Positions 3,575 through 22,850 of a stretch of DNA of 64,000 bases are shown in pieces. Each line of letters begins with the position of its first letter. The first letter of the stretch is position 1. The translations under genes and the position numbers were made by a program. Origin of the DNA: Bacillota bacterium. Lineage in GTDB: Bacteria > Bacillota > DTU025. The DNA lies in the NCBI GenBank assembly GCA_050951805.1, contig JBMNJT010000007.1:12521-76520 (forward strand), given 5' to 3'. The notes below the pieces were generated by a model that saw only the letters and a list, made by a program, of their open reading frames with translations, was not told the DNA's origin and did not search any database.

Positions 3575-4516
3575 TCAGTTCATAGATGGGCTTCTTTCAC
3601 TTTTCATAAGTTCCATGAAAACTTCAACCCAGTCAGGATCGAACTGAGTCCCCGCATTTTCGGCAATTTCTTTGATAGCCTCGGAACGAAGCAGAGCTAG
3701 GCGATAGGGGCGGTCCGATGTCATAGCGTCAAAGCTGTCTGCTATAGCAAGTATCCTGGCCATTTCGGGTATAGCGTCCCCAGAAAGCCCGTCTGGGTAG
3801 CCTGCTCCATCATACCTTTCATGGTGATGCCTTACGGCTCTTGCAATTTGCGCCATAAAAGCGGCAGGTTGCAGAAGCATTTTCTCTCCGATAACGGGGT
3901 GCTTCCGCACCTCAGCCCATTCCTCAGCAGAAAGCGATCCGGCCTTCGCCAATACCTCTTCCCCAATCAACGCTTTTCCTATGTCGTGCAGTGTACCAGC
4001 CAAAGCCAATTCTCGGTAGTCTCCGCCCGTTCCCCACCTCATTCTGGCCATTGCCACAGACATGTTTCGCACTCGAAAAGAGTGTCGTGCGGTCTGGTGA
4101 TCGATCACGCCTATGGACTTTACCAACCCTTCCACGCCTTCTGAAATGACAGCAATCATAGCGTTAGCAACATTCCTGATCGCGTAGCCTCTGGCATCAC
4201 TGGAATCGCTTCTACTCTCATAGTCTGAAAAGCCGCATACAACATCGCCCAACCTGGAACCTTCGCCATCGGTCAGCTTGATCCGTCTGACCACGTGCTT
4301 GAGCCTCTTGCAAGCATAGCCAGATTCTCTGCCGCCATCTGCACAAGAACAATTGGATTCGGCGCAAGCTGCGAAATCCTCCCCGACTATGACCCCCCAC
4401 TCACTTCTGGCCATTCGGTTCGAAATCACAACCCTCCCGTCGCAGTCAAGCACTACAATACCCTCCGGCATCTCCTCGATCGCGCTTTTTGCCAACATTT
4501 CTATGTTCGGATTCAA
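3575..4516 (-). CDS. PAS-like + HD-GYP domain c-di-GMP phosphodiesterase
   Basis: Motifs HSFRV, LHDIGK, HHERYDGAGYPDGL, IADSFDAMTSDRPYR; RBS GGAGG upstream. Confidence 0.9.
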   Translation of the reverse strand: MNPNIEMLAKSAIEEMPEGIVVLDCDGRVVISNRMARSEWGVIVGEDFAACAESNCSCADGGRESGYACKRLKHVVRRIKLTDGEGSRLGDVVCGFSDYESRSDSSDARGYAIRNVANAMIAVISEGVEGLVKSIGVIDHQTARHSFRVRNMSVAMARMRWGTGGDYRELALAGTLHDIGKALIGEEVLAKAGSLSAEEWAEVRKHPVIGEKMLLQPAAFMAQIARAVRHHHERYDGAGYPDGLSGDAIPEMARILAIADSFDAMTSDRPYRLALLRSEAIKEIAENAGTQFDPDWVEVFMELMKSERSPSMN

Positions 4517-4886
4517 CTGCGGGCAACCTCCTGAGAGAAATGGTCTCTATATTAAACCGACCAGGAGTGTGCAATGGCGCTTCATTTGCGGAAATTCAGT
4601 CGCCCGCCAACACCAACTCAGGGAGCACACCATAAATCTGCGCTCCGACCAACCTGGAACGGAATATCGGCATGGCAAATTCAAATACCAACAAAGAAGT
4701 ATAGAACTCCAAACCAATGGTGTCAATATAGGGCGTGGTTTCCAAGCTTATACTCCACATATTCTGTGTTGTTTCCAGTCGCGAACCCCCACCGAAATAG
4801 CAGTGCAGGCTGGAAAACCATCCTGCACTGCATGGCCTAGGGCCAAATGTCCGTAATCTCGCTACCTATATCTATACGTGCTTTCT

Positions 4887-6782
4887 TCAGACCTTGAACT
4901 GCCCCACAAGCTCGGTCAATCTGCCAGCCATCCTCGAAAGAGACTCAGCGGAAGCCGTCATCTCTTCAACCGATGCGCTGATTTCCTCGACCGACGCCGA
5001 AGATTCTTCTGCAGCTGCAGCAGTCTCTTCGGCAACTGCAGCAGTATTATCTGCAGACTCGCGCACCTCATCTGCCAAGCCTGCAAGCTCCTCGGCTACG
5101 ACCCTATTGTGGCCGGCCAATTTAACCAGGTCTCTCATAACCTCTTCCACTCGGGCACTGTTCTCGAGGAGCTGATCAGTTTTGCCCATTATGTTCTCTA
5201 TGTCCTTTTCCGTCCGATTCGCGATCTCAAAAACCCTGTTGAACACGGCGCCCGTTTCTGTGGAGAGGGAACTTACCTTTTCCACCTCTTCCGCACTGGT
5301 CCTTATCGTCGCCACCGATCCGGCGGTAGCCTCCCTGACCCTCATCACTAATTCAGCGATCGCCTTGGTCTCAGCAGCCGAGCTTTCGGCAAGCTTCCTG
5401 ACTTCGTCTGCCACGACCGCGAAGCCGCGTCCGTGTTCGCCTGCTCTTGCAGCTTCTATTGCGGCGTTTAAAGCTAAGAGGTTAGTCTGGTCCGCTATGT
5501 CGCCTATCACTTCGAGGATCTTGCCGATCTCCTGAGAGTAAGCGTCGAGTTCTTCTATTCGCTCCACCACGTCATCGGTAGTCTCCTTGACGCGCTCTAT
5601 GCCCTCGATGACCTGGTTCACATTTTCTATGCCTTCACCGGCCATTCTGGCATTATCGGCAGAAGCCTCTGACGTAACGCGCAATCCCTCGCCTGTCTCT
5701 GCCAGTGATGAGATCATGCTCGCCACTACTTCGAAGGTCTCCTCTATATGGCTCTCCTGTTGCCCAGCATCCTCCGCCAACTTGTTTATGGACTCATTCA
5801 TTCTGTCAGCAAGCTCTACGCTGCGCCTGGCATGCTCGCTTTCATCCTGAGCTCCCTGGGCAACCTGGACTGTAGATGCTGCAATTTGCTGTGCCGCTTT
5901 CGACACTTCCCCCGATCCTGCCGCCAGCTCCTCGCTGGCCGTGGCGACTTCGTTGGCCGTAATTGATATCTTACCAATTATGCCCTGCAGCTTGTCGGCG
6001 AATACGTTGAAGTGCTCGGCCAAATGGCCGATTTCATCCGTTGTCAATACCTCAAGACGTTGTGTGAGGTCTCCCTCCCCCTGGGAAATGTCTTTCAACA
6101 TTTCTACCGTGTCCTTCACAGGCACAGCAATGCTTTTTGCCAGTGCAAAGGCTATGGCTCCGGCAAGAATTACTCCAACAACAGCACTCAAAACCGCCGC
6201 CGATATCTGCTTCTTGCGTGCCGCCAGCACTTGGCCGGCGTCCAGATCGACAGCAAGCACGCCGGCGACATCACCTGTGCAGTTGAAGATAGGAGCATAG
6301 GCTGTAAGAAAGGTACCCCACTCGTCTCTCTCAAGATCCTCCATCACAGAGGCGGCGCCGGCAAAAGCCCGCTCCATAGCGGGGTTAGATTGATACAGGT
6401 GCCCAATCTCCGCGTGGTCCTCACCGTCAGTCTCATCAACAACTATGATTACCTCGCCATCTGTATCCTTCGCCAGAGTGTACACGAAAACCACGTCCGG
6501 ATTATCGTTTCGCACTCTCCTCAAGTACTCCTGAATCGACTCATACGCATAGGTATCTTCCATTCGAAGCTCAACAACGGCACAGTGTTCGTCGCCATCT
6601 ATGTTCGAAGCCGCGGTCCGGGCTATGGCCAGTATGCGCTGCTGTATCTCGGCAAACACCCGTGACCAGCTTTGAAAATAGAATACACATCCCGTGATAG
6701 CCACAACAGCCAAAACCAAGCAGGTAATCACAACAACCAGCTTGGTCCTGAGTGAATTGAATTTCACTGTATCTACCCCCAA
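4887..6782 (-). CDS. Methyl-accepting chemotaxis protein (Cache-like sensor, HAMP)
   Basis: Two TM segments, HAMP (GDLTQRL...DEIG), signalling tip [38 protein letters not shown]. Confidence 0.95.
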
Positions 6783-6943
6783 AAAACATCCCTGAAGGCC
6801 TTTCGACGCGCTGGCCTACAATTCCCGAAATCATATATTCCATCGGGCATACCCGCCAACCAGGCATCAATTGCCGCAGCAGATCAAGACCGCCTTTTGC
6901 GACACAAATTCCCCTGCGGTAAAGGACATGCGGGTTGCGCCGA

Positions 6944-8824
6944 CTACACCATGAATTTAGCGACGCTTTGCTGCAGGCGGGCAGACATTTCGGCAAGGGT
7001 TTGGGCAGAAGACGCCACCCGCTGTACAGCTGCGCTGATCTCCTCAGTCGAAGCCGAAACTTCTTCTACCGATGCCGCGCTCTCTGCAGCTGCAGCCGCA
7101 ATCATCTCTACCGCCTGTTCGACTCTGCCGATGTGAACACTCATGTTCTGTGCATCATCCGTATTGGACTGAGCAATCTCGAGTACCTCCTTCATGTTCG
7201 CTTCCACCTGCCTAGCAATCATCCTGAACTGTTCAATCTCTTTCATCATGCTATCAATGGCCAAGGCAGTCTCTTCGGCGGCGTTTGATATGTCAACAAG
7301 CGTCTTGCCGGCTTCTTGGGCGGCACAATTCCCGTCCGAAACCTCCCGCCCCTGCAGTTTCATGGTAGCCGCGGCCTGTTCTGTCGACTCTCTAACTTGC
7401 TGAATGAGGCCTCCAATAGCCCTTGTCTCTCTTGCAGAGCTTTCGGCAAGCTTTCGAACTTCTTCAGCCACAACTGCGAACCCGCGACCTTGTTCACCTG
7501 CCCTCGCTGCCTCTATGGCGGCGTTGAGCGCCAAAAGGTTGGTCTGGTCCGCAATATCCTCTATCACGCCAACGATCCTTCCGATCTCGTGTGAAAGTCC
7601 TTCGAGTTCGCTGATTCTTTCAGACGCGGCAATCGTCTTCTTGTCGATCTCGGCCATCCTTGCTGCCAATCCATCCACCACTTTGCACCCGTCAGTAGCC
7701 GCCTCAACATTGCGCCTGGTTGACAGACGCACGTCGTCAATTAGGATCAACGTCTTGTCAAACGAATGGCCCATCTCGTCGTACGCAGCAGATGTACGGC
7801 TCACAACGTCGGCCTGAGTCTCAGCTCCTTCGTGTACACGTCTGATAGACTTTCCTAGTTCAGCTGTGGACAATGCAGTCTCATTCGCCGAGTGCGACTG
7901 TTCCTGAGCCTGACCGGCAATTTGCCGTACTGTTGTGGTCACTTCCTGAATTGACGCCGCCGTTTCTTCCGAACCCGCCGAAAGCTCCTGGCTAGCTGCG
8001 GCGACATCACGAGCCATTGCAGAAGATTCAGAAACAACGTTGCGCAAGTTGGCAATCATGCCGCCGAAGGCCCGCGTTAGCACGCCCATTTCGTCCGCAG
8101 CTTCTGAATTCGCATCTACAGTCAAATCGCCCGCGGCCACTCTCGGCGCAAGCATCGCCAGTTTCCTGGCTGGCTCCGCAATAGAACGTCCTATAGGAAA
8201 CCCGACAGCGAGACCTGCGAGGGCACCAATCGCTGTGATCCAGACGATCCGGCGAAGGTTGCGAGTAGCGTTAAGCTGGATTCTCTCGATAACGCTGTCT
8301 GTTTCTCCTTTGACGCATGCAACAAGCTGATCATGGAGACCTTCCAGTTCAGCCTTGATAACTTGTCCATTGTTCATGTTGAATCTCGCCGTATCTGCCG
8401 CGCCCATCCTTGCAAGAGACTCCACCTCTGCAACGAAAGAGAGATATTCCTCCCATAGGCCCTGCAATTCATCATAAACCCCACGTCCCTTTGGGGTTTT
8501 GAGTCGTCCCTGAACTATTCTCATGTTCTTTTCATGGGCTTGCTTAGCCTCTTCTATCTTGTGTTCGTAATATGTAAGCGTATCGTAATCCTCGGCCATC
8601 ACAAGCTGAGCAAGGCAACTGTCAATACTCACAGCCGCCGTTTGAGCCTTGAGCGCGTTTTCCAGCTGCGGAATATATCTGCTGGCCATCTCGTCAACAT
8701 CCGAAGCGAGAGAATTTATCGTCGACATACACACCCACGCTGTAGCTCCCATAATGGCCGCAAATACGATGAAAATCAGGAGGAACTTCCAGGTCAAGCC
8801 GATGTTCATGACCCACTTTCTCAT
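6944..8824 (-). CDS. Methyl-accepting chemotaxis protein (four-helix-bundle sensor, HAMP)
   Basis: TM, helical sensor, TM, HAMP, then [27 protein letters not shown]. Confidence 0.95.
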
Positions 8825-9475: not shown

Positions 9476-11567
9476 GTTCGCCCGGCATGTTTGTTGAGCC
9501 GATGGACTGAAAGAAGTCCTGTCACCTAACCAGCGGGAAGACAACCCCAAGGCAAGGGCGTCGCTGGTAACGGCGGGGTCTGAAGGAAGCTTTAAGGGGG
9601 AACACGGAACGTAGCGAAAGCGAACCGAAGTTGGCCTGTCAGGTGGGTAACCTTGCGAAGTATGGGAAAGCCCGAAAGCTGGATAACCTGGGGGGTTTTG
9701 ACGGACGGGTTCGTGTTCAGGCAGACAAACTTAACCGGGGAAGCCCTGCATCATCCAGATAGCTGGTAAGCCCAAACAAGCGGAGACGCAAGGATGGGAA
9801 TATGTGGTGTGGGGTGGCAGATGAGTCCGTAGTAGTTATGAACCCTCAGCCCATGAAAGCTGGCAACAGACCGGAGGATAAAACTGAGGGGACAGCGGCC
9901 GGGAGCTGCTGGGCTGCATAGGCCAAAAGCCTATGCAGTTGCGAAGGGACGAAGGCAAACCAAAGCGTGCAACCTAGTTACAGGCAAGCATGGGAGAGAG
10001 ATAACAGAGGCTGAAATGCCGATGGGAACGGGGGAGCCGGGGGCGACGAGTCTGCTGGTCCCTGCGCCCGCTCAGCAGAGTATCAAAGTTTCGCGGGGTA
10101 GATTGCCTTAGAGCTAGAGACGCCTCGCAGGCCTTGGGAAGAAACTGCAACCATGCAAGCTTGATGGCCAAGGAAGCACGGCGAGATGAAGGAGCTAATT
10201 GATGAAACACTACAGCTTGATCGATAAGGTTTACCGGATGGATAACCTTAGAGCTGCATACAGGGCCGTCAGGGCCAACAACGGGGCTCCCGGGATAGAC
10301 GGTGAGACCGTGGACGCCTTCGGCGAGAACCTGGAAGCCAGGCTGGCAGAGATTTATCAGGAGCTCAGATCAGGATCTTACGAACCAAGTCCGGTGCGGC
10401 GGGTAGAGATACCGAAGCCAGACGGAAGCAAAAGGCCTCTTGGCATACCCACCGTTGGCGACAGAGTAGTGCAGCAAGCGCTGCTCAATGTGGTTCAGCC
10501 AATCTTCGACCCCGAATTCCATCCATCGAGCTATGGGTACCGACCCGGGCGATCCTGTCATCAAGCAGTGGCAAAGGCAGAGAGGTTCATTAATCGCTAC
10601 GGTCTCAAGCACGTAGTGGACATGGACTTGTCAAAATGCTTTGACCGACTCGATCATGACCTGATCATTGAGTCTGTGAACCGAAAGGTCAGCGACGGAA
10701 GCATACTTAAGCTGATCCGGAAGTTCCTTGAAGCAGGAGTCATGAAAGACGGGGCCTGGGAGGAAACAACCATAGGCAGTCCGCAAGGCGGAGTAATATC
10801 GCCTCTTCTTGCCAATATCTATCTTGACTACTTTGATCAAAAGATGAAGTCAAAGGACATCAGGATAGTGAGGTACGCTGACGATATACTCATCTTTGCG
10901 CGGACAAGGCGACAGGCGGAAAAGTTCTTGGAGATAGCGTGCGAGATCCTTGAGGGCGAGTTAAAGCTCGTTGTGAACAGGGATAAAACGCACATAACCA
11001 GCGTCTATAAGGGAGTGCCCTACCTTGGGTTTGTCATATACCCTAAGGTAGTAAGCATACACCCCAAGAAGCTGGCGAAGTTCAAGGACGCCGTCCGCAA
11101 GCTGACTCCCCGCAATCATGGGATGAGTGTTGAGCAGATGGTGAAGCGACTGAACCGATTCCTTCGTGGATGGATCAACTACTTTCGAATTGCGAACTGC
11201 AAGACGATAGTAGCCAGCCTGATGGGGTGGATAAGGCGGCGTCTGAGGATGAAGCAGATGAGGGAGTGGAAGAGCTGGAGGGGCCTGCATAAAGCACTTC
11301 GAAGGCGAGGCTACTCAGGCGAATTCCTAAAGATATCCATGAGACGATGGAGGAACTCGGCAAGTCCTCTGGTCAACATGGCGCTTCCTCAGGCTTGGTT
11401 CAGTGAGATAGGACTGATTGACCTCACGAAGTATGAGGTCGGCGTCTTGCATCTCTTCTATGAAGCGAAGTGACTAAGGTTTGCCAGGAGCCGTGTACGG
11501 GGCCCGTACGCACGGTTCTGTGAGAGGGATGACGCCAGGCTGATTACCTGGCGCCACCCTACTCGAT
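9476..11567 (+). mobile_element. Group II intron, class C-like, full-length copy A (2092 nt)
   Basis: 5' GTTCGCCCGGCATG; DV GAGCCGTGTACGGGGCCCGTACGCACGGTTC; DVI ending CCCTACTCGAT. Boundaries are defined by identity with two other copies; inserted 3' of a hairpin. Confidence 0.95.
10202..11473 (+). CDS. ltrA: Group II intron reverse transcriptase/maturase, no endonuclease domain
   Basis: Motifs RPLGIPTVGDRVVQQA, SYGYRPGRS, GSPQGGVISPLLANIYL, RYADD, X domain RGWINYF; RBS AAGGAG. Confidence 0.95.
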   Translation: MKHYSLIDKVYRMDNLRAAYRAVRANNGAPGIDGETVDAFGENLEARLAEIYQELRSGSYEPSPVRRVEIPKPDGSKRPLGIPTVGDRVVQQALLNVVQPIFDPEFHPSSYGYRPGRSCHQAVAKAERFINRYGLKHVVDMDLSKCFDRLDHDLIIESVNRKVSDGSILKLIRKFLEAGVMKDGAWEETTIGSPQGGVISPLLANIYLDYFDQKMKSKDIRIVRYADDILIFARTRRQAEKFLEIACEILEGELKLVVNRDKTHITSVYKGVPYLGFVIYPKVVSIHPKKLAKFKDAVRKLTPRNHGMSVEQMVKRLNRFLRGWINYFRIANCKTIVASLMGWIRRRLRMKQMREWKSWRGLHKALRRRGYSGEFLKISMRRWRNSASPLVNMALPQAWFSEIGLIDLTKYEVGVLHLFYEAK

Positions 11568-11622
11568 AGTAGCCGGCATCATTCTGCTGTTCTCAACATT
11601 TACGGATTAGGCGGACGTTAAG

Positions 11623-13206
11623 CTAGAAATCGCGGCCCTCTCCCATAACGAGAGCCCTGTAGGCAACCTCTGTCTTTTCCTGATAGCTTCCACTGCGATC
11701 CAAGGCATATGCACGCCCCATCGCCGTTACCACTTCTACATTCATCCCTGACGGGATCTTTGCCTCAAGAATCTCTAGTAGATCAGCAGCACCCTGTGGC
11801 GGACTGCTTCGACCATCAAGGATCAGATGAAGCCAAGCCCGTCCAATTCCTTTTTCCGCTGCTGCTCTGAGCACTGCAATCCCCTCGTCCATATTCCCGT
11901 GAGAGCTCCGTTCCGACAGCATAGCTATTACATGAATATCGCCGCCATGGCTCCGCGCCGCTTCAAAGCCGTAATTGACTGCCTCATTCTCTTTGAGCCC
12001 TCCAGCGCCAACAGCCTGCGAAATCCGGAGTTCGTCTTGGGGAACAACCCGCCCGGCGCCGAGAGTTAGATGCCCGGTCTCCGAATTGCCTGACCTTCCC
12101 TTTGGCAAACCAACGGCCATCCCAGCCGCAGCCAGAGTCATATATGGACATTCCTTCCTCATTCTGCTCATACACGGCGTGTTGGCAACTGCAATCGGGT
12201 TGATGGTTGAATCATCTATGCCAACTCCCCATCCATCCAAAATAACCAATACCAGTCGATCATAAGTTCCCTCATGGACGGCGCGGCACTTGCCGGTCAT
12301 CTCCTCGGGCACAGGTACGCCCATCATGCTCAACAGCGTGGGCGCAACATCTGCAAGGGTGGCATCCTCCGCCGCCCTCAGTTGCACAGACGGCCCTCCG
12401 GTCGCCAACACCAAGCCGAACGGCACACGACTACATGTATGGCTAAGGTTGTGGCTCCCATCTTCATTCACAAACCTCTCGAGCAGCCCATGATCTGCAG
12501 TTACAGCAACTGCATAACCATGTTGAGCCGCAGCTAGGCATATGGTGCTGAGCGCTTGATCTACCGCTTCAGCACAGAGCACATTAGCATTCCAATCATC
12601 CAGATGCCCAATGATGTCCCCCGCCGCTAGGTTCACAAGGATGAAGTGCCTGCTATAACCACTGGCGTTCGCAGCAGCCATCGAGCGCTCAGCTTCGAGG
12701 GCAACTTCCACCGTGCTCGTAGCCGGTTTCGAGACAAATTCTGATGAGTGGGGACTTGGCACAGTAATCCACTCTTCATTGGCATACGGTGCAACGCGCC
12801 TGCCATTGAAAAAGAACGTAACATGCGCCGCCTTCTCCGACTCGGCAATCCGCGTCTGCGCCACGCCGGCCTGACTCAGCGCCTCACCCATGGTTCCTTC
12901 AGGACGAAGAGTCGGAAAGATTGTGGGCAACTCAGCAAATTTCTCATGATATTGCACCAACGGAACAACGCTCAGATCAGGCATGGGTTCCGTTTCGAAT
13001 TGATCAAATAGCGGGTCAGCTAAGGCCTCTGTGAGCTGTCGTTCACGGTCCCCACGCCTGCAACAAAAGAATAGAGAATCGCCATTCTTTATCTTGCCCA
13101 CAGGCTTGCCATCGACGACGCGAGTCAGTGGAGTCATCCAGTAATCCATTTCTCCCCGGCTGTAGCACTCTCTCAAAGCCTGCTGCAAAGAAGCTGTTGT
13201 CTGCAC
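11623..13206 (-). CDS. Circularly permuted 2,3-BPG-independent phosphoglycerate mutase (GpmI) homolog
   Basis: All iPGM motifs are present but the halves are swapped. C-half motifs (RGDRERQ, ESEKAAHVTFFFNG, DIIGH, TADHG, LADVAPT...EMTG) come before N-half motifs (ILDGWG, GNSETGH..GAGR, DGR, GRAYALDR). Confidence 0.9.
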   Translation of the reverse strand: MQTTASLQQALRECYSRGEMDYWMTPLTRVVDGKPVGKIKNGDSLFFCCRRGDRERQLTEALADPLFDQFETEPMPDLSVVPLVQYHEKFAELPTIFPTLRPEGTMGEALSQAGVAQTRIAESEKAAHVTFFFNGRRVAPYANEEWITVPSPHSSEFVSKPATSTVEVALEAERSMAAANASGYSRHFILVNLAAGDIIGHLDDWNANVLCAEAVDQALSTICLAAAQHGYAVAVTADHGLLERFVNEDGSHNLSHTCSRVPFGLVLATGGPSVQLRAAEDATLADVAPTLLSMMGVPVPEEMTGKCRAVHEGTYDRLVLVILDGWGVGIDDSTINPIAVANTPCMSRMRKECPYMTLAAAGMAVGLPKGRSGNSETGHLTLGAGRVVPQDELRISQAVGAGGLKENEAVNYGFEAARSHGGDIHVIAMLSERSSHGNMDEGIAVLRAAAEKGIGRAWLHLILDGRSSPPQGAADLLEILEAKIPSGMNVEVVTAMGRAYALDRSGSYQEKTEVAYRALVMGEGRDF

Positions 13207-13251
13207 TCCATGTCACTCCTGCACTTCGTTGTCTGCTCTAAGCAGCGAATG

Positions 13252-14316
13252 TTATTTGGGGAAAACCAAGCCGTTCTGGATAAACGCACGGGTGCGGTCG
13301 CCAGGCTCAAACCTCATTGAGGAATTCGTCTGGACCCTGAGAAGATCCTCGCCAATTCGAACCCGGTATTCGATGACATTTCCGAGGAATATCCTTACGT
13401 CCACTTCGCATTCGACCCCTTGTTCGGTCCCCAGGATGATATCCTCCGGCCTGATAGCGAGGATATAGTCTCCTTTGTTCACCGATGATCCGTCAAGATC
13501 AAACTCCGCCCCGCCACGAAGGCGAATGTCGATGCCTTTTTCAGTCTTGCCAGTCACACTGCAGGGAACGAAGTTCATAGTCCCTATGAAGTCGGCAACG
13601 AACTTGTCCTTCGGCGTTTCATATATGTCATGAGGCGCACCCTCCTGCACTACTTTGCCGGAGTTCATTACGGCAACCCGGTCTGACATGGCCATTGCCT
13701 CAACCTGGTCATGAGTAACATACAAAATGGATATTCCCGTCTTGCGCTGAATGTCTTTGAGCTCAAAGCGCATCTGCTCTCGCAGTTTCGCATCGAGATT
13801 GGAAAGAGGCTCATCAAGCAGCATAACCCTTGGGTCGGTAGAAAGCGCTCTCCCCAATGCAACGCGTTGCTGCTGTCCACCGGAGAGTTCCGATGGGAAC
13901 CTTCTTTCCAAGCCCTCGAGTTCAAGTAGGTCTAGCAAGTAAGCCATTTTAGCATTGATCTCTTCTTTTGGCCTTTTCGCCAGCCGAAGGGGGTAGGACA
14001 TGTTCTGTTCTACTGTCATATGCGGCCATACTGCGTAGTTTTGAAAGACCATTCCTATGCCCCGGCGCTCAGGCGGCACCATCACGTTTTTCTCCGGCGA
14101 AGTTACCAACTGACCGCTTATGTGTATCTCGCCCTCAGTGGGCTGCTCCAACCCTGAAATGCACCGGAGTGTTGTCGTCTTCCCGCATCCAGAGGGCCCC
14201 AGAAGCGAGAAGAACTCGTTCTCATGAACTGTAAAGCTCACATCGTGAACTGCTGTAAACGTCCCAAACCGCTTGACTAGGTTTGAAACCTTGATTCGTT
14301 CTTCCACCCTTGCCAC
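13252..14316 (-). CDS. ABC transporter ATP-binding subunit (PotA/FbpC-like, TOBE)
   Basis: GPSGCGKT, LSGGQQQRVA, LLDEPLSNLDAKLR, YVTHDQ. Confidence 0.95.
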   Translation of the reverse strand: MARVEERIKVSNLVKRFGTFTAVHDVSFTVHENEFFSLLGPSGCGKTTTLRCISGLEQPTEGEIHISGQLVTSPEKNVMVPPERRGIGMVFQNYAVWPHMTVEQNMSYPLRLAKRPKEEINAKMAYLLDLLELEGLERRFPSELSGGQQQRVALGRALSTDPRVMLLDEPLSNLDAKLREQMRFELKDIQRKTGISILYVTHDQVEAMAMSDRVAVMNSGKVVQEGAPHDIYETPKDKFVADFIGTMNFVPCSVTGKTEKGIDIRLRGGAEFDLDGSSVNKGDYILAIRPEDIILGTEQGVECEVDVRIFLGNVIEYRVRIGEDLLRVQTNSSMRFEPGDRTRAFIQNGLVFPK

Positions 14317-14329
14317 CTCCGCATACCGT

Positions 14330-16018
14330 TCACATACTGATTTCGCCTTTTGAAAGCTTCCGCACGATTGCGTTGCCAGCCAAGATCACAAGCAAAACAA
14401 TCGTAGACAACGCCGCAGCTATCTGGGTGTACCCGGCATCTTGCATGTTGTATATAACCACTCCTATAGTCTCAGCGCCCTGTGACCACAGAAGAACGGA
14501 CATGGTCAACTCCCTCAGAGCTGGCATGAAAACCAGGATCCACCCGGCTATGAGGCCAGGTTTGATCAACGGCATCACAATGTCTTTCATTGTCTGAGTC
14601 CATCCTGCCCCGGAAACCCGCGCAGCTTCCTCAAGCGAAACATGCACCTGCTGAAGAGTCGCGTTGGTAGTGCGAATCGAAAATGGCATGTACCGCACTA
14701 GGTAAGCCGCAAGTATGACCCATATCGTGCCGTAAAGCATCACAGGGGGTCGCGACCAGGCCAAGATCATGGCAATTGCCACCATAGTACATGGCACCGC
14801 GTAAGGTATGGTTCCTACGAAGTCGAGAGTCTTGGCTCCCTTGATCTTGGCCCGCACAGACATGTAAGATACCAAAGCTCCAACGGCCATGGTGATTGTG
14901 GCAGCAGAAACCGCCAGGAACAAGCTGTTCCTAAATGCCCTGGATGCCATGGGCAGATCCAAAATGTATTTGTAATGACTCGTAGTCATATTCGCAAGGT
15001 TCAGCGGTGCGCCCCAGTATTTGAGGAATGAAGTCAAAAGCATCGATATCAGCGGAACTACCCCTGCAAAAAGCGATACGAGGACAACGATGATAAGGAC
15101 AGGGATCCGCCAACCGCCTAGACTCATTGTTTGAGGCCTGACGCTCTTGCCCGCAATCACTGTATACCTGCTTTGCCCACGCTCCAGTCTCCTCTCGAGA
15201 ATAAGGGGAATCCCAGATGTAATCGCCAGGATAACCGCCATCGCAGTCGCCAATGGCATATCCGGTATGGACAGAGCGGAGTATATCTTCGTAGTCAACA
15301 CGAAGAACCGGGCCCTGAACCCAAGAAGAGCCGGAATTCCGAAGTTGGATATGCAGCCGACAAACGCAAGCAATGCGCTAGCTGTGATCGCAGGCGTGAT
15401 CAGTGGCATAGTTACATCTATGAGAGTCCTAAACGGACCTGCGCCAGACATCCTCGCGGCTTCTTCTAAGCTCGTATCGATCTTGCCAAGCGCCCCACTC
15501 ACAGTTATGAAAACGACGGGAAACTGATATACAGCGAGCACTAATACTACCCCGGCAGCACTGTATATGTTCCACGGAGCAGATGTCGCGCCCGTAAGCG
15601 TCATATATAGCTTAGATACGTAACCTACTGGTCCAAAAAGCTGAGCCCACGCCATCGCACCAATGAACGGCGGTATGCCATACGGCAGCAGGAGCAGCAT
15701 CCTCAACCACGACTTGCCCGGGATATCTGTTCGGACAACGAGCATAGCCAGGATAGTGCCTACAGCCACACATATCAGAGTAGACAGAGACGAAACCCAG
15801 ATGGAATTCCAAAAGGCTTTAAGATTGGCTGACTCAGAGAAGATTTTCACATAGTTTTCGAAAGTAAAACCCGCCTCAGAACTGAAACTCTTAACTACAA
15901 CAAGGGACAGAGGGTACACGATGACGACCAGGAAGAACAGCCCAATGATGGCCATGAACACATAGCGTACATCCATAGATCGTCGTCCAACTGCTGTGTC
16001 CGTATTCAATCGAATCAT
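14330..16018 (-). CDS. ABC transporter permease (FbpB/AfuB-like, two fused domains)
   Basis: Two EAA motifs (SLEEAARMSGA, SLEEAARVSGA); RBS AGGAGGGGG upstream of the start, which is approximate. Confidence 0.92.
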   Translation of the reverse strand: MIRLNTDTAVGRRSMDVRYVFMAIIGLFFLVVIVYPLSLVVVKSFSSEAGFTFENYVKIFSESANLKAFWNSIWVSSLSTLICVAVGTILAMLVVRTDIPGKSWLRMLLLLPYGIPPFIGAMAWAQLFGPVGYVSKLYMTLTGATSAPWNIYSAAGVVLVLAVYQFPVVFITVSGALGKIDTSLEEAARMSGAGPFRTLIDVTMPLITPAITASALLAFVGCISNFGIPALLGFRARFFVLTTKIYSALSIPDMPLATAMAVILAITSGIPLILERRLERGQSRYTVIAGKSVRPQTMSLGGWRIPVLIIVVLVSLFAGVVPLISMLLTSFLKYWGAPLNLANMTTSHYKYILDLPMASRAFRNSLFLAVSAATITMAVGALVSYMSVRAKIKGAKTLDFVGTIPYAVPCTMVAIAMILAWSRPPVMLYGTIWVILAAYLVRYMPFSIRTTNATLQQVHVSLEEAARVSGAGWTQTMKDIVMPLIKPGLIAGWILVFMPALRELTMSVLLWSQGAETIGVVIYNMQDAGYTQIAAALSTIVLLVILAGNAIVRKLSKGEISM

Positions 16019-16035
16019 CCCCCTCCTACAATGGG

Positions 16036-16070
16036 CTGGGGTACACTGCATACAGTAATGTACTCCCCAG
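16036..16070 (-). other. Stem-loop immediately 3' of the tandem introns
   Basis: CTGGGG(A)GTACA...TGTACCCCAG inverted repeat. Confidence 0.6.
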
Positions 16071-16935
16071 ATCGAGTAGGGTGGCGCCAGGTAATCAGCC
16101 TGGCGTCATCCCTCTCACAGAACCGTGCGTACGGGCCCCGTACACGGCTCCTGGCAAACCTTAGTCACTTCGCTTCATAGAAGAGATGCAAGACGCCGAC
16201 CTCATACTTCGTGAGGTCAATTCATCTCGCCGTGCTTCCTTGGCCATCAAGCTTGCATGGTTGCAGTTTCTTCCCAAGGCCTGCGAGGCGTCTCTAGCTC
16301 TAAGGCAATCTACCCCGCGAAACTTTGATACTCTGCTGAGCGGGCGCAGGGACCAGCAGACTCGTCGCCCCCGGCTCCCCCGTTCCCATCGGCATTTCAG
16401 CCTCTGTTATCTCTCTCCCATGCTTGCCTGTAACTAGGTTGCACGCTTTGGTTTGCCTTCGTCCCTTCGCAACTGCATAGGCTTTTGGCCTATGCAGCCC
16501 AGCAGCTCCCGGCCGCTGTCCCCTCAGTTTTATCCTCCGGTCTGTTGCCAGCTTTCATGGGCTGAGGGTTCATAACTACTACGGACTCATCTGCCACCCC
16601 ACACCACATATTCCCATCCTTGCGTCTCCGCTTGTTTGGGCTTACCAGCTATCTGGATGATGCAGGGCTTCCCCGGTTAAGTTTGTCTGCCTGAACACGA
16701 ACCCGTCCGTCAAAACCCCCCAGGTTATCCAGCTTTCGGGCTTTCCCATACTTCGCAAGGTTACCCACCTGACAGGCCAACTTCGGTTCGCTTTCGCTAC
16801 GTTCCGTGTTCCCCCTTAAAGCTTCCTTCAGACCCCGCCGTTACCAGCGACGCCCTTGCCTTGGGGTTGTCTTCCCGCTGGTTAGGTGACAGGACTTCTT
16901 TCAGTCCATCGGCTCAACAAACATGCCGGGCGAAC
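16071..16935 (-). mobile_element. ORF-less group II intron copy C (865 nt, internal 1227-nt deletion)
   Basis: Same 5' and 3' ends as the full copies. The junction GAGGTCAAT/TCATCTCGCC near 16221 removes the RBS, start codon and most of the RT ORF. Confidence 0.93.
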
Positions 16936-19027
16936 ATCGAGTAGGGTGGCGCCAGGTAATCAGCCTGGCGTCATCCCTCTCACAGAACCGTGCGTACGGG
17001 CCCCGTACACGGCTCCTGGCAAACCTTAGTCACTTCGCTTCATAGAAGAGATGCAAGACGCCGACCTCATACTTCGTGAGGTCAATCAGTCCTATCTCAC
17101 TGAACCAAGCCTGAGGAAGCGCCATGTTGACCAGAGGACTTGCCGAGTTCCTCCATCGTCTCATGGATATCTTCAGGAATTCGCCTGAGTAGCCTCGCCT
17201 TCGAAGTGCTTTATGCAGGCCCCTCCAGCTCTTCCACTCCCTCATCTGCTTCATCCTCAGACGCCGCCTTATCCACCCCATCAGGCTGGCTACTATCGTC
17301 TTGCAGTTCGCAATTCGAAAGTAGTTGATCCATCCACGAAGGAATCGGTTCAGTCGCTTCACCATCTGCTCAACACTCATCCCATGATTGCGGGGAGTCA
17401 GCTTGCGGACGGCGTCCTTGAACTTCGCCAGCTTCTTGGGGTGTATGCTTACTACCTTAGGGTATATGACAAACCCAAGGTAGGGCACTCCCTTATAGAC
17501 GCTGGTTATGTGCGTTTTATCCCTGTTCACAACGAGCTTTAACTCGCCCTCAAGGATCTCGCACGCTATCTCCAAGAACTTTTCCGCCTGTCGCCTTGTC
17601 CGCGCAAAGATGAGTATATCGTCAGCGTACCTCACTATCCTGATGTCCTTTGACTTCATCTTTTGATCAAAGTAGTCAAGATAGATGTTGGCAAGAAGAG
17701 GCGATATTACTCCGCCTTGCGGACTGCCTATGGTTGTTTCCTCCCAGGCCCCGTCTTTCATGACTCCTGCTTCAAGGAACTTCCGGATCAGCTTAAGTAT
17801 GCTTCCGTCGCTGACCTTTCGGTTCACAGACTCAATGATCAGGTCATGATCGAGTCGGTCAAAGCATTTTGACAAGTCCATGTCCACTACGTGCTTGAGA
17901 CCGTAGCGATTAATGAACCTCTCTGCCTTTGCCACTGCTTGATGACAGGATCGCCCGGGTCGGTACCCATAGCTCGATGGATGGAATTCGGGGTCGAAGA
18001 TTGGCTGAACCACATTGAGCAGCGCTTGCTGCACTACTCTGTCGCCAACGGTGGGTATGCCAAGAGGCCTTTTGCTTCCGTCTGGCTTCGGTATCTCTAC
18101 CCGCCGCACCGGACTTGGTTCGTAAGATCCTGATCTGAGCTCCTGATAAATCTCTGCCAGCCTGGCTTCCAGGTTCTCGCCGAAGGCGTCCACGGTCTCA
18201 CCGTCTATCCCGGGAGCCCCGTTGTTGGCCCTTACGGCCCTGTATGCAGCTCTAAGGTTATCCATCCGGTAAACCTTATCGATCAAGCTGTAGTGTTTCA
18301 TCAATTAGCTCCTTCATCTCGCCGTGCTTCCTTGGCCATCAAGCTTGCATGGTTGCAGTTTCTTCCCAAGGCTTGCGAGGCGTCTCTAGCTCTAAGGCAA
18401 TCTACCCCGCGAAACTTTGATACTCTGCTGAGCGGGCGCAGGGACCAGCAGACTCGTCGCCCCCGGCTCCCCCGTTCCCATCGGCATTTCAGCCTCTGTT
18501 ATCTCTCTCCCATGCTTGCCTGTAACTAGGTTGCACGCTTTGGTTTGCCTTCGTCCCTTCGCAACTGCATAGGCTTTTGGCCAATGCAGCCCAGCAGCTC
18601 CCGGCCGCTGTCCCCTCAGTTTTATCCTCCGGTCTGTTGCCAGCTTTCATGGGCTGAGGGTTCATAACTACTACGGACTCATCTGCCACCCCACACCACA
18701 TATTCCCATCCTTGCGTCTCCGCTTGTTTGGGCTTACCAGCTATCTGGATGATGCAGGGCTTCCCCGGTTAAGTTTGTCTGCCTGAACACGAACCCGTCC
18801 GTCAAAACCCCCCAGGTTATCCAGCTTTCGGGCTTTCCCATACTTCGCAAGGTTACCCACCTGACAGGCCAACTTCGGTTCGCTTTCGCTACGTTCCGTG
18901 TTCCCCCTTAAAGCTTCCTTCAGACCCCGCCGTTACCAGCGACGCCCTTGCCTTGGGGTTGTCTTCCCGCTGGTTAGGTGACAGGACTTCTTTCAGTCCA
19001 TCGGCTCAACAAACATGCCGGGCGAAC
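16936..19027 (-). mobile_element. Group II intron full-length copy B (2092 nt)
   Basis: Reverse complement of 9476-11567 with a few SNPs; its 3' end abuts copy C with no spacer. Confidence 0.95.
17030..18301 (-). CDS. ltrA: Group II intron reverse transcriptase/maturase
   Basis: Protein identical to that of 10202-11473 in the ORF track. Confidence 0.95.
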   Translation of the reverse strand: MKHYSLIDKVYRMDNLRAAYRAVRANNGAPGIDGETVDAFGENLEARLAEIYQELRSGSYEPSPVRRVEIPKPDGSKRPLGIPTVGDRVVQQALLNVVQPIFDPEFHPSSYGYRPGRSCHQAVAKAERFINRYGLKHVVDMDLSKCFDRLDHDLIIESVNRKVSDGSILKLIRKFLEAGVMKDGAWEETTIGSPQGGVISPLLANIYLDYFDQKMKSKDIRIVRYADDILIFARTRRQAEKFLEIACEILEGELKLVVNRDKTHITSVYKGVPYLGFVIYPKVVSIHPKKLAKFKDAVRKLTPRNHGMSVEQMVKRLNRFLRGWINYFRIANCKTIVASLMGWIRRRLRMKQMREWKSWRGLHKALRRRGYSGEFLKISMRRWRNSASPLVNMALPQAWFSEIGLIDLTKYEVGVLHLFYEAK

Positions 19028-19088: not shown

Positions 19089-20069
19089 CTATTTGAACAT
19101 TATTTTCTCGAAGGTCTCCCTTATAGCAGACGCGTTATCAGCCGCCCATTGGAATGGAACGGGCATCATCTTTATTTTATCTGCCGTAGGCATTCCCTTC
19201 GGAGGAGCTACATCTGGCCTCACTGGTATCACACCATCATTGACCAATAGCTCCTGCCCCTTCTTCGAGAGAGTGAAGTCTACAAATGCCTTGGAGGCCT
19301 CAAGATTCTTTGACCCAGCAACTATCGCTACCGGACTCGGAATTGAGACCGCACCGTCGGCAGGCCAGACAAAATCAACCGGCGCTCCCGACTTCTGAAG
19401 GTCATAAATCATGTAGTCCAGCACCATGCAGGCTGCAAATTCGCCAGCAGCCAAACCTCTCGAAACATCTGAATTGCCCCTGAGAACCTGTATTCCAGAT
19501 TTTCGCGCTTTCTCGTACCAGCTCCAACCTTTGTCTCTTTGAACAAAAGCCGCTGCAACAGTGAAGTTGGAACCAGAATAGAGGGGGTCCGCCATTGCGG
19601 CGCGAGAACCAAACCCGAGCAAGTCATCCCAAGTCTTTGGCTCGGATCCTTTCTTGACTAAATTGGTGTTTATTCCAATTACCATGTTAATCATGCGAGC
19701 GCCTGTAAAGTATCCGTCAGGGTCCTTGATTGCTGAAGGAATGCGGGCGGCTTCCGGCGATTTGTACGGATATAGCAAGCCCTTGTCCTTGAATGCGTAG
19801 TAGCTTGCAGCATCAGCCAGCCATATTACGTCGGCCCTTATACCGCCAGCATCAGCCTCAGCCCATATCTTGTTGACCACATCAGTGCTTCCAGCTCGAA
19901 AAACTTCCACCTTGATCCCTTTATTCGCCTTCATGAATTGGTCTGCGAAGTTCGTAGCGAGTTCCAGTGGAACAGACGTGTAAAGCAGGACCTTCGACTC
20001 AGCAAATACACCAGTAGAGATCGACAGCAACAATACCAAAGCCAGGACTATTACACTGCCCCTTTTCAT
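19089..20069 (-). CDS. ABC transporter substrate-binding protein (AfuA/FbpA/PotD-like)
   Basis: Signal peptide MKRGSVIVLALVLLLSISTGVFA with no lipobox Cys; motifs LYTS, ADVIW, KDPDGYF, ADPLYSGS, FVDFTLSKKGQ. Confidence 0.9.
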   Translation of the reverse strand: MKRGSVIVLALVLLLSISTGVFAESKVLLYTSVPLELATNFADQFMKANKGIKVEVFRAGSTDVVNKIWAEADAGGIRADVIWLADAASYYAFKDKGLLYPYKSPEAARIPSAIKDPDGYFTGARMINMVIGINTNLVKKGSEPKTWDDLLGFGSRAAMADPLYSGSNFTVAAAFVQRDKGWSWYEKARKSGIQVLRGNSDVSRGLAAGEFAACMVLDYMIYDLQKSGAPVDFVWPADGAVSIPSPVAIVAGSKNLEASKAFVDFTLSKKGQELLVNDGVIPVRPDVAPPKGMPTADKIKMMPVPFQWAADNASAIRETFEKIMFK

Positions 20070-20146: not shown

Positions 20147-21478
20147 CTAGTCATGCAACTTGATCTTTCGAGCCACCTTTAGCACTTCTTCTTCTAGATC
20201 GATAGAAGCATCTGTAGGAATAGGCTCATTATCGATATACACGATCTCAAGCCCCTTACGTACCGCCCATTCAGTCACAACATCTACTGCAGCAGCCTTG
20301 AGTTCAGAGACGATTGCATCAGGCTTCAACGTTTCAAAACGCGCCAGGTCCTCTCGGAGCAGCGGCCTGTTCGAAAGGTGCGAGCTAACTCCAACAACCT
20401 CACATCCATAAGTCTTCTCAAGATAAGCAGATATGGCATCTGTCATCACCGCAGGCGTAGTTAGAGTGAGGACTATTCTCTTACCGGTAATATCGCCAAT
20501 CGGGCGAGGTCTGAAAATGGTCTTCACCACCGTGCATCCGGCGTTTATCTCGTGAATGGCTTCTACCATCTCGTCAATCTTAGCTTGGTCAACCATTGGA
20601 GACTCACACATTGTAAGAACAATTAAGTCGGAGGTAAGAATACGATAAGGCCCGAGGTAAGAGCGCATATACTCTACGGGTTGGTGAGCACCGATGACTA
20701 GTATGCGCGCATCCGTGTGCACCGAAGGTATAGATGAACCGCTGCCTTCGAATATGACTATGTCGGCGTCGATCTTTTCCGACAGTTCAGCACCTCTGTC
20801 CACATTTGAGACAAAAGTCTGTCCCGACATCCCGCCTCCACACCGTCGACAGCCGATGGTTGTAACCCTTGAGGTAAGCAGATCCTCGAAATGGTCAGAC
20901 GATGCATGGCGCCCTTGTTTGCTAACGGACAACAAATACTCGGGCGTGATCTCAATCTCAGACGCGCTGAGCAGCTCAGGCTCTGCAGGACCACCCCGCC
21001 CCATGGTAACCACGACGGGGTTATACTTCTTCGCCAGCGTCCGCGCGACAAAACCGCCGACAGCAGTCTTTCCGATTCTCTTCCCGGTTCCTATGACCGA
21101 GATACTCGGCCTGCTTACGCGCGCCGCCTCTACAGGAGGAGTGAACTGGAAATCCGCGCCCCGGTAAGCGACACCCTTTGCAAGCACATTGCTGGCAATC
21201 TCAAACCGCTCCTTGTAGCCAACTACAGGCTCGTCGCTAAGATCAACAACCTCATCCGGATCGTATTTGTCTATAGCGGCTGCGATAGCATGGAGATAGT
21301 CATCCTCATGCACTACAGGAACTCCAAGTCTGGCAAGATCAGAATCAGAACCAATCTTCTCAGTGCCGCCAATGAAAACGGCAGCCAATATGTCGAGCTC
21401 CCCCTTGAGCACCTCTATGGCATCATGAGTTACCGCAGGGTAATGCTCACCGTCTGTAAGTACAATAGCTTTCTTCAT
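20147..21478 (-). CDS. cpgS: Cyclic 2,3-diphosphoglycerate synthetase homolog
   Basis: DGEHYP, FIGGTEK, DLSDEPV, GADF, GTGKRIGKTAV, MGRGGPAEPE, HASSDHFED, TIGCRRCGGG, EGSG and ELKAAAVD are the motif series of archaeal cDPGS. Confidence 0.9.
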   Translation of the reverse strand: MKKAIVLTDGEHYPAVTHDAIEVLKGELDILAAVFIGGTEKIGSDSDLARLGVPVVHEDDYLHAIAAAIDKYDPDEVVDLSDEPVVGYKERFEIASNVLAKGVAYRGADFQFTPPVEAARVSRPSISVIGTGKRIGKTAVGGFVARTLAKKYNPVVVTMGRGGPAEPELLSASEIEITPEYLLSVSKQGRHASSDHFEDLLTSRVTTIGCRRCGGGMSGQTFVSNVDRGAELSEKIDADIVIFEGSGSSIPSVHTDARILVIGAHQPVEYMRSYLGPYRILTSDLIVLTMCESPMVDQAKIDEMVEAIHEINAGCTVVKTIFRPRPIGDITGKRIVLTLTTPAVMTDAISAYLEKTYGCEVVGVSSHLSNRPLLREDLARFETLKPDAIVSELKAAAVDVVTEWAVRKGLEIVYIDNEPIPTDASIDLEEEVLKVARKIKLHD

Positions 21479-21499: not shown

Positions 21500-22288
21500 C
21501 TAGAATGAAGATGCATTGACAACCATCTCCTTTACCTTGCGCATGTTGGTGAGATCTACATATGTCTTGCACATATCCCCACGTATCAGAGACTTTGCAT
21601 ATAGAATTGGTGTGGGCGATTCCGCGTAAGAAATGCGCTCATTGAGCATTGCCAATGCGCCAACTGATTGTCCAAGAAGGTCAGCTTCTAGGCTACCGAG
21701 GAAGACTGGCCGGAAGGTCTCGTCGCTCCTTTTCAGGACAATACCGTATTCATCACGGAGTATCCGAAATAGCGATCTTGATAGATCGGCCTCTTCAATG
21801 CCGATAGCCACATCGGGGGAGATGAAAGTCGTCTCAATTAGCATTGGAATGCCATCGACTTTTTTCAAGCGTCTGATCCTTAACACTTCCGAGTCGTCTT
21901 CAATGGCCAAATACGCACTGACAAGATTGGAAGCCGCAACCCGGTCTATAGTAAGAACCTCCGCCCAGAATTCGTGTCCAAGAGCTCGAATTCTGGACGC
22001 AAGACGCATTTCGTCGGTGATATAGGTCGTCTCCTTGTACTCCATGGGCCATTGCGGAACTGAAACAAAAGTTCCCTTCCCTTGTACAGAATAGAGCAGG
22101 CCCTCATGAACTAATTCCGAAATGGCCTGCTTAGCTGTTGTAGTGCTTATGTCATAGGTTCCGCACAACTCACGTATTGAGGGAATGCGCGTCTCGGGCT
22201 CCCATTCGCCCGAGACGATCTTCTCCTTGAGCTCTTCTTTAAGCTGATAATACAGGGGAATAAAACTGTCCTTCTTAAGCATTGGCAC
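21500..22288 (-). CDS. GntR family (HutC/UTRA) transcriptional regulator
   Basis: PLYYQL...IPSIRELC...QGKGTFV winged HTH plus a UTRA-like C-terminus; GGAGG precedes GTG 22288/ATG 22282. Confidence 0.92.
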   Translation of the reverse strand: MPMLKKDSFIPLYYQLKEELKEKIVSGEWEPETRIPSIRELCGTYDISTTTAKQAISELVHEGLLYSVQGKGTFVSVPQWPMEYKETTYITDEMRLASRIRALGHEFWAEVLTIDRVAASNLVSAYLAIEDDSEVLRIRRLKKVDGIPMLIETTFISPDVAIGIEEADLSRSLFRILRDEYGIVLKRSDETFRPVFLGSLEADLLGQSVGALAMLNERISYAESPTPILYAKSLIRGDMCKTYVDLTNMRKVKEMVVNASSF

Positions 22289-22314
22289 GAAAGCCTCCAT
22301 ACCGTAATGGACCT

Positions 22315-22457: not shown

Positions 22458-22588
22458 CCCATCTTCATTCACAAACCTCTCGAGCAGCCCATGATCTGCA
22501 GTTACAGCAGCTGCATAACCATGTTGAGCCGCCACTAGGTTCACAAGGATGAAGTGCCCGCTATAACCGCTGGCGTTCGCGGCAGCCA
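22458..22588 (-). pseudogene. Degenerate internal fragment of the permuted iPGM gene
   Basis: Matches 12457-12531 joined to about 12621-12680, with 5 substitutions seen. Confidence 0.85.
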
Positions 22589-22850
22589 AGGTTCATTTAC
22601 CGAGGAGATGTCTAAGGATATAGGCAATGTGGTTAGAAGCCGTAGAAGGCATCATGGTTAGAGTAAGAACCCTTGAATGGGTCCGGCAGATACTATTCGT
22701 CACCAAGTTGCCCATCGAAGGCGAACAGTCAAAATGTGCGTAGGCTAACCGATACGGGATGGTTCTGTGCAGAGCACGATGGAGTGATGGGACTGTTCTT
22801 TGCTGGAAAACCTAATTGAAGTAGATCAGAACTAAAGGACGTGAACTCCG

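Follow-up and report, generated by a model that had tools for sequence, protein, structure and literature searches.

A single open reading frame (ORF) from a Bacillota bacterium (GTDB lineage Bacteria; Bacillota; DTU025) almost certainly encodes a protein of the cofactor-independent phosphoglycerate mutase (iPGM) family that is genuinely circularly permuted; this family belongs to the alkaline-phosphatase superfamily. The ORF lies in a stretch of 64,000 nucleotides, hereafter the window (assembly GCA_050951805.1, contig JBMNJT010000007.1, positions 12,521 to 76,520), at window positions 11623..13206 on the minus strand. As an earlier note made from the letters of the window had claimed, it is one uninterrupted frame of 527 aa; it starts with GTG, AGGAG is found 9 nt upstream of the start, and no terminator-like site was found in window 11400-13400. 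Its product, named piPGM here, is encoded by the last gene of an operon that also specifies an ATP-binding cassette (ABC) importer and a homologue of cDPGS, the cyclic 2,3-diphosphoglycerate synthetase. We propose, with a probability of about 0.45 for the whole chain, that this operon serves the uptake and catabolism of cyclic 2,3-diphosphoglycerate (cDPG) from methanogens, the permuted enzyme acting on 2,3-diphosphoglycerate (2,3-DPG). For piPGM, the name phosphoglycerate mutase is best read as a label of ancestry and not as a demonstrated activity. The parts of the protein are as follows, with equivalent residues numbered as in the iPGM of G. stearothermophilus (PDB 1ejj).

12289..13206 (-): first part of piPGM, aa 1-306; second half of the transferase domain and C-terminal part of the phosphatase domain, equivalent to about 1ejj 212-510; carries R51, R54, K125, D197, H201, D238, H239 and H256
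12259..12288 (-): linker, aa 307-316 (CRAVHEGTYD); joins the canonical C-terminus to the canonical N-terminus and forms an unaligned gap between the two matched stretches
11626..12258 (-): last part of piPGM, aa 317-527; N-terminal part of the phosphatase domain (D324, catalytic S375) and first half of the transferase domain (H436, R466, S467, R498, R504), equivalent to about 1ejj 6-211

Sequence searches of the PDB indicated that the two halves of the protein are swapped. The earlier note had expected aa 1-306 to correspond to about residues 215-510 of a canonical enzyme and aa 317-527 to about residues 1-215. In agreement with this expectation, aa 9-308 aligned with 1ejj residues 218-508 (135.6 bits) and aa 318-525 with residues 6-211 (139.5 bits), and the order was swapped relative to piPGM in 11 of 11 matched iPGM chains. 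Each half was 32-37% identical to canonical GpmI. The linker of about 10 aa proposed in the same note was found at aa 307-316, and its statement that essentially nothing is duplicated or missing held: piPGM contains no duplicated part, and only about 6 residues of 1ejj (212-217) and the extreme termini were unmatched. Both iPGM domains were matched significantly by Pfam, each in two stretches (Metalloenzyme, 150.4 bits; iPGM_N, 134.4 bits). Positions 1-130 of the 217 positions of the iPGM_N profile fell at the C-terminal end of piPGM (aa 395-525), so the chain is broken inside the transferase domain. The NCBIfam model TIGR01307 also matched in two stretches, the best of which aligned aa 6-306 with profile positions 212-501 of 504.

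The note had argued that joining the canonical termini was structurally plausible. Consistent with this, Pfam nests iPGM_N inside the Metalloenzyme domain in the canonical proteins of a metagenome locus described below (L008), and the hinge description in the available part of PMC5382265 agrees, the phosphatase domain of iPGM being tied by two hinges to the phosphotransferase domain. The collinear arrangement, with the transferase domain within the phosphatase domain, was not found in piPGM, in which a continuous phosphatase domain lies inside a split transferase domain; the canonical nesting is reversed. Both inter-domain crossings (the hinges) are retained, so the open/closed mechanism can be kept. 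An AlphaFold2 model, the structure prediction that the note had called for, was built from an alignment of 42 sequences and had a mean predicted local distance difference test score (pLDDT) of 94.8 and a predicted template modelling score of 0.89; the linker itself scored 97-98 (pLDDT). All 19 listed Foldseek matches of this model in the PDB, of 22 at E<0.001, were iPGMs, the unlisted ones being additional chains of the same entries. Foldseek and VIA-align, which both depend on sequence order, each covered about 280-314 residues, roughly one half of the protein, with template modelling (TM) scores of 0.39-0.46.

The permuted order was shared by a whole family. Relative to the canonical iPGM of the same genome, it was found in 121 of 121 sequences, namely piPGM and its 120 best listed homologues, which were 43-99% identical to the query and nearly all covered 96-100% of it. 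Their database names pointed to Clostridia/Bacillota, Anaerolineae and Thermotogota. With its rotated order, its lack of duplication and its recurrence across independent sequences, piPGM has the features of a natural circular permutant. The best 150 matches to the family profile, among 1.84 billion representatives at 50% identity, comprised 18 in one full-length stretch and 132 in two or three. When 15 of the single-stretch matches were newly checked, 14 aligned as two high-scoring pairs in permuted order and one was a truncated sequence. The permuted form is thus a small minority of iPGM diversity. A profile search of contigs with the family alignment, keeping ORFs with at least 80% coverage from 80 loci, returned 4 permuted (L004-L007) and 71 canonical proteins; as most of its matches were canonical iPGMs, it is a poor census of the permuted family. 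One permuted member, a protein of 581 aa in genome G004 (L100:9583-11328; P0018), has about 55-60 extra residues inserted near position 271 of the query and was matched in the genome search as two pieces within one open frame.

For phylogenetic analysis, the two segments of each permuted protein were first put into canonical order. The first tree contained 72 canonical iPGMs and 122 permuted rows, made up of 112 of the 120 database matches (8 outside 500-560 aa were dropped), 9 sequences from loci and the query. The permuted group formed one side of a branch against the 72 canonical sequences with a FastTree support of 100. In a 48-row IQ-TREE tree under a mixture model, from which four long canonical rows were left out, the support of this group in the Shimodaira-Hasegawa-like approximate likelihood ratio test (SH-aLRT) was also 100. 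A single origin of the permuted form is not contradicted by either tree of these sequences. Together with the 53 invariant columns described below, the single clade and the uniform order support the claim of the note that this is a natural, functional permuted subfamily.

The length of the linker was informative about its origin. In 117 of 122 permuted members, 18-20 residues separate the glycine of the MTG motif from the first metal-ligand Asp; canonical iPGMs have a median of 12 residues before this Asp and a median of 6 after the MTG glycine. The linker is therefore the native canonical tail and head joined together, which fits a tandem duplication followed by in-frame fusion and loss of the outer halves. 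In L008, a locus from an uncultured bacterium, two iPGM genes of canonical order lie in tandem (4069-5637 and 5644-7218, both +), 6 nt apart and 41% identical to each other. The first L008 protein branched as the sister of all permuted sequences (SH-aLRT 96), a position made unsure by its long branch of 1.19. Its His123 loop is partly permuted-like (SSAHAA), and it retains D154 and E231. This tandem pair is a possible model of the duplication-fusion precursor; if so, it would be a living one.

The alignment was next examined for residues kept and changed in the active site. Conservation in both groups was found in 53 columns, the thresholds being 97% for the 122 permuted and 95% for the 72 canonical sequences. 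They include D324, S375, D197, H201, D238, H239 and H256, which were invariant in 42 of 42 sequences and correspond to the metal ligands and nucleophile of 1ejj (D12, S62, D403, H407, D444, H445 and H462), all present in piPGM. The available text of PMC5382265 likewise gives two metal sites and a Ser nucleophile in the ligand list of C. elegans iPGM. Also invariant were H436, R466, R498, R504, R51, R54 and K125, equivalent to H123, R153, R185, R191, R261, R264 and K336 of 1ejj. We take these 1ejj residues to be the phosphoglycerate-binding clamp.

By contrast, eight columns at least 90% fixed in the 122 permuted sequences differed from residues at least 80% fixed in the 72 canonical ones. In 1ejj numbering, taken to be that of the genome's own canonical iPGM minus 1, the changes are G121S, V122S and S124G around His123, D154S, M189L, W195Y, E231Y and a Thr to Ser change two positions before K336. 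The canonical-invariant pocket residues D154 and E231, the GGVHSH loop, M189 and W195 were not found in piPGM; they are replaced by S467, Y22, xSSHGx, L502 and Y508, each in 98-100% of the 122 permuted sequences. The permuted family has thus lost two acidic residues of the transferase-domain pocket (D154S and E231Y).

In every genome examined that contains it, piPGM is an accessory paralogue beside a housekeeping phosphoglycerate mutase (PGM). The genome of the window holds a canonical iPGM (682 bits). Among this genome and 40 relatives, 9 of the 41 contained the permuted form, all 9 from the same order, and each also had canonical matches; the permuted form was not found in 20 of 20 genomes of the same phylum outside the order. 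A Clostridiales metagenome-assembled genome (MAG) and Butyricicoccus pullicaecorum, which both have the permuted gene, also have a canonical iPGM, and two Anaerolinea have a cofactor-dependent enzyme (dPGM). As piPGM accompanies a housekeeping PGM and carries fixed changes in its active site, its substrate is probably not simply 3-phosphoglycerate (3PG) or 2-phosphoglycerate (2PG).

The neighbouring genes suggested another substrate. The operon, read on the minus strand, consists of the following genes.

21500..22300 (-): GntR/UTRA (HutC-type) regulator, first gene of the operon
20147..21478 (-): cDPGS homologue, 443 aa, with a sequence match to 8oru
19089..20069 (-): extracytoplasmic solute-binding protein; probable start at the Met of MKRGS..., then a signal peptide; the listed ORF extends to 20132
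14330..16051 (-): fused two-domain ABC permease, two BPD_transp_1 domains, PhnU2-like but below cut-off
13252..14316 (-): ABC transporter ATPase, ABC_tran and TOBE_2 domains
11623..13206 (-): piPGM, last gene of the operon

The 443-aa protein had no match in the copies of Pfam and NCBIfam searched. It aligned over aa 2-435 with residues 4-447 of the cDPGS structure 8oru (E 5.3e-139, 467 bits, about 50% identity) and keeps both the Walker A loop GTGKRIGKT (K145/R146) and the GGTEK motif (E45/K46). In the available part of PMC10690619, K145, R146, E45 and K46 are the 2,3-DPG contacts of cDPGS. Database names of its homologues, found in Clostridia/Bacillota MAGs and in Methanobrevibacter, read '2,3-diphosphoglycerate synthetase'. 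By analogy with the archaeal enzymes, the homologue would act on 2,3-DPG or cDPG.

We therefore hypothesize the following pathway. The ABC system would import cDPG released by methanogens in digesters and sediments. The cDPGS homologue would run in reverse, converting cDPG, ADP and Pi to 2,3-DPG and ATP. Then piPGM would take the 2,3-DPG, move one phosphate to Ser375 on its two-metal site and release it to water, and the product, 3PG or 2PG, would feed glycolysis. A second phosphate would fit because D154 and E231 are lost (D154S, E231Y) and the loop around His123 is remodelled. The catabolic direction is supported by the binding-protein-dependent importer, the signal peptide of the binding protein and the HutC-type regulator, and by the failure to find NF003259 (PRK04220), which we take to be 2-phosphoglycerate kinase (2PGK), in the 97%-complete genome. 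The sections of PMC1224877 (Roberts 2005) available to us describe the synthesis of cDPG in methanogens by 2PGK and cDPGS, and report that the M. fervidus cDPGS is reversible and forms ATP from ADP, Pi and cDPG. Metagenomes of digesters, bioreactors, landfill, sludge and sediment contained the DNA of the window (20 runs from 15 studies).

The distribution of the operon showed how closely the two enzymes are linked. The gene order (GntR/UTRA regulator, cDPGS homologue, binding protein, fused permease, ATPase, piPGM) was conserved in relatives whose piPGMs were 47-87% identical. Within the order, 9 of 21 genomes had the cDPGS homologue, 9 had piPGM and 7 had both; the exceptions were fragmented assemblies and G015. 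Of 401 genomes sampled across the phylum, 8 have the cDPGS homologue, in all 8 cases in this operon with piPGM. Two of the 8 belong to another family, and their cDPGS identity (72%) exceeded that found within the order (58-60%), which hints at lateral transfer. A metagenome scan with the cDPGS homologue as a single protein returned 12 loci. In two distant metagenome loci, at 41-49% identity (L110:6248-9254 and L111:9971-12905), the genes were rearranged to the order binding protein, permease, ATPase, cDPGS, piPGM, so that the transporter genes come before the two enzyme genes and do not separate them; the cDPGS and piPGM genes overlapped by 8 nt, which suggests translational coupling. Loci linked to cDPGS occurred in two deep subclades of the permuted family, the L110/L111 piPGMs lying in a different one from those of the operon described here. 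In genome G009, which is 90% complete, only two stretches of the cDPGS homologue (query 29-264 and query 327-402) were matched, within a frame of 379 aa (C239:1605-2531, -); either an internal deletion or faulty assembly could explain this. A permuted iPGM was not found in that genome.

Several observations weigh against this pathway. The assignment of the substrate of piPGM is drawn from gene linkage and residue changes. D154 presumably contacts the glycerate, the roles assigned to D154 and E231 are tentative, and the phosphoglycerate-binding residues are all kept, so that ordinary 3PG/2PG mutase activity is possible. The nearest named relatives of the binding protein were binders of 2-aminoethylphosphonate, pyridoxal-5'-phosphate and Fe3+, all below the family cut-offs. 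In G015, which lacks cDPGS, piPGM is accompanied by a GntR regulator and an ABC system of another kind. The largest permuted subclade has another context: in L004-L007 (two Anaerolinea, the Clostridiales MAG and Butyricicoccus pullicaecorum), piPGM follows 1-4 tandem hydrolases of the haloacid dehalogenase (HAD) class HAD-IA, with a LacI regulator nearby, and a search with the cDPGS of the window found no homologue in these four genomes. As this subclade lacks the link to cDPGS, what its members share with the rest of the family may not be cDPG but 2,3-DPG or some other small phospho-acid. The HAD neighbours matched only generic HAD-IA models, all below the NCBIfam cut-offs, and L004 also contains an ApgM-type mutase, an RpiR regulator, an IolB/KduI protein, a transaldolase and an ABC importer. 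The occurrence of piPGM in RNA libraries, described below, does not prove transcription. Finally, the M. thermautotrophicus cDPGS appears irreversible, according to the available part of PMC1224877.

The alternative that fared best is that piPGM is an ordinary 3PG/2PG mutase isozyme, permuted by chance. It would raise PGM capacity when import yields phosphoglycerate, with an unlinked phosphatase removing the extra phosphate. We consider this unlikely. The invariance of the catalytic and phosphoglycerate-binding residues, a TIGR01307 score of 391 bits (above the cut-off of 330.65) and the annotation of the homologues as iPGM by their sources are what such an isozyme would display. On the other hand, its NF003897 score of 302 bits is far under the cut-off of 862, and at eight positions that hardly vary among other iPGMs the permuted family has fixed a different residue. 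Every piPGM genome examined also contains a housekeeping PGM, which leaves a second plain PGM without an obvious purpose, and no other enzyme of the operon could dephosphorylate 2,3-DPG.

Less probable again is a biosynthetic operon through which the bacterium makes cDPG of its own. In such an operon piPGM would stand in for 2PGK as the source of 2,3-DPG, for instance through transfer of the acyl phosphate from 1,3-bisphosphoglycerate to O2 via phospho-Ser, the cDPGS homologue would cyclise it and the ABC system would recapture what leaks. The P-loop and the 2,3-DPG site are indeed kept in the cDPGS homologue, and the active-site changes would suit a bisphosphate product too. As 2PGK was not found in the genome (97% complete), 2,3-DPG would have to come from elsewhere. 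Nevertheless, binding-protein importers and HutC-type repressors, as found here, are typical of catabolic operons; the module is patchy (8 of 401 genomes) and looks laterally transferred; and the neighbours in the HAD-linked clade are phosphatases, which fits breakdown. In addition, cDPG is described as exclusive to methanogens in the accessible portion of PMC10690619.

It is improbable that piPGM itself opens the ring of cDPG, as a hydrolase of the phosphodiesterase or pyrophosphatase type giving 2,3-DPG, with the cDPGS homologue in another role. The alkaline-phosphatase superfamily does include pyrophosphatases and phosphodiesterases, and a cDPG hydrolase activity to which no gene is assigned is known in M. 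thermautotrophicus (PMC1224877, available part). Such an enzyme would run a futile cycle against the co-encoded synthetase and leave 2,3-DPG without a downstream enzyme, and piPGM also occurs in genomes where cDPGS was not found.

Support for the junction at 12250-12300, which the earlier note had wanted from reads, came from Logan contigs and not from raw reads. Contigs of two DNA runs and two RNA-library runs, from four different studies, bridge the linker.

window 11539-12486: Logan contig X12
window 11885-12486: Logan contig X13
window 12025-12752: Logan contig X15
window 11582-12587: Logan contig X16

An artefact or a dead gene, be it two iPGM halves joined into a chimera or a pseudogene, can be dismissed: identical inverted copies of a group II intron flank the segment, and repeats of this kind can mislead assemblers, but the junction lies in unique sequence bridged in the four runs, the gene is also present in three intron-free metagenome contigs about 99% identical to the window, the permuted order recurs in all 120 listed homologues, the most distant of them 43% identical, and the frame is open, with invariant catalytic residues and a confident model. 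Misassembly was rejected on these grounds.

Compared with known systems, piPGM resembles canonical GpmI (1ejj/1o98; TIGR01307) in its two domains, metal ligands, Ser nucleophile and Arg/Lys substrate clamp. It differs in its permutation, with new termini in the transferase domain, in the fixed changes of its pocket, in always being an extra copy and in its transport and catabolic gene contexts. Phosphopentomutase DeoB and the sulfatases are other systems of the alkaline-phosphatase superfamily. A permuted segment order within a phosphomutase superfamily is known for the alpha-D-phosphohexomutase PGM3/AGM1; unlike piPGM, this enzyme has an unrelated fold and mechanism, and it says nothing on iPGM. 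Methanogen cDPG metabolism (2PGK and cDPGS; M. fervidus 8oru/8ork) shares with the operon a full-length cDPGS homologue, about 50% identical, with both sites conserved. It differs in that the host here is a bacterium in which 2PGK was not found, and in that the cDPGS gene stands together with those of an ABC importer, a GntR regulator and a permuted iPGM, which suggests the use of a solute and not its synthesis.

We found no report of a permuted iPGM in the literature searched, which covered few subscription journals, so absence from print is not proven; the available part of an analysis of 338 iPGMs makes no mention of permutation (bioRxiv 10.1101/2024.10.28.619893). No report of bacterial cDPG use or of a cDPG ABC transporter was found either, the cDPG literature among the matches listed being archaeal work on the compound. 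Sequences of piPGMs are already public under ordinary iPGM names, and metabolic reconstructions count piPGM as a plain glycolytic PGM, which it probably is not. The family is a natural experiment in topology, in which the domain nesting of an enzyme with a large hinge motion is inverted and the catalytic residues are all kept. The tail-and-head linker bears on how permutation arises and on the engineering of the iPGM family, a drug target. Our tentative view, held at somewhat less than even odds, is that the operon may represent a dedicated bacterial system for scavenging cDPG, with an importer, a reverse cDPGS harvesting the anhydride bond as ATP and a neofunctionalised permuted iPGM serving as 2,3-DPG phosphatase. 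If true, it would be the first bacterial catabolism of cDPG and a new nutritional link across domains, and the enzyme would be the first naturally permuted iPGM to have acquired a new specificity; cDPG would then be a public good that digester and sediment bacteria consume, possibly recovering ATP.

The introns that interrupt or flank the operon are as follows.

9489..11569 (+): full group II intron with a reverse transcriptase (RT) ORF at 10199-11473; 55 nt past the piPGM stop, antisense to the operon
16071..19027 (-): group II intron insertion; full copy at 16936-19027 (RT ORF 17030-18304), then an ORF-less copy at 16071-16935

The second insertion separates the binding-protein and permease genes. 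The RT/maturase ORFs of the two full introns (424 aa) are 100% identical and in inverted orientation, and the ORF-less copy, a D1-D4 piece with D5/D6, lies in tandem behind the full copy of the minus strand. All three copies were absent from L102, L103 and L108, the contigs about 99% identical to the window. Logan contigs diverged from the window at 11567/11568, the edge of the intron, and the depth of the intron in metagenome contigs was 10-100x that of its flanks.

A relic piPGM-like fragment was detected by tblastn at 22458-22649 (-), upstream of the GntR gene, matching aa 161-250 at 46% identity. A core of 82 nt in this relic is 96% identical to window 12457-12538, inside the intact piPGM gene, and L103, a near-identical contig, has the fragment too; an older copy may have left it behind, or gene conversion may have produced it. 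Just upstream of the operon, at 23769-25514 (-), lies a gene for a 581-aa fusion of DUF501 and a Ppx/GppA phosphatase, which was found at the same place in L103 (99%) and L106 (62%).

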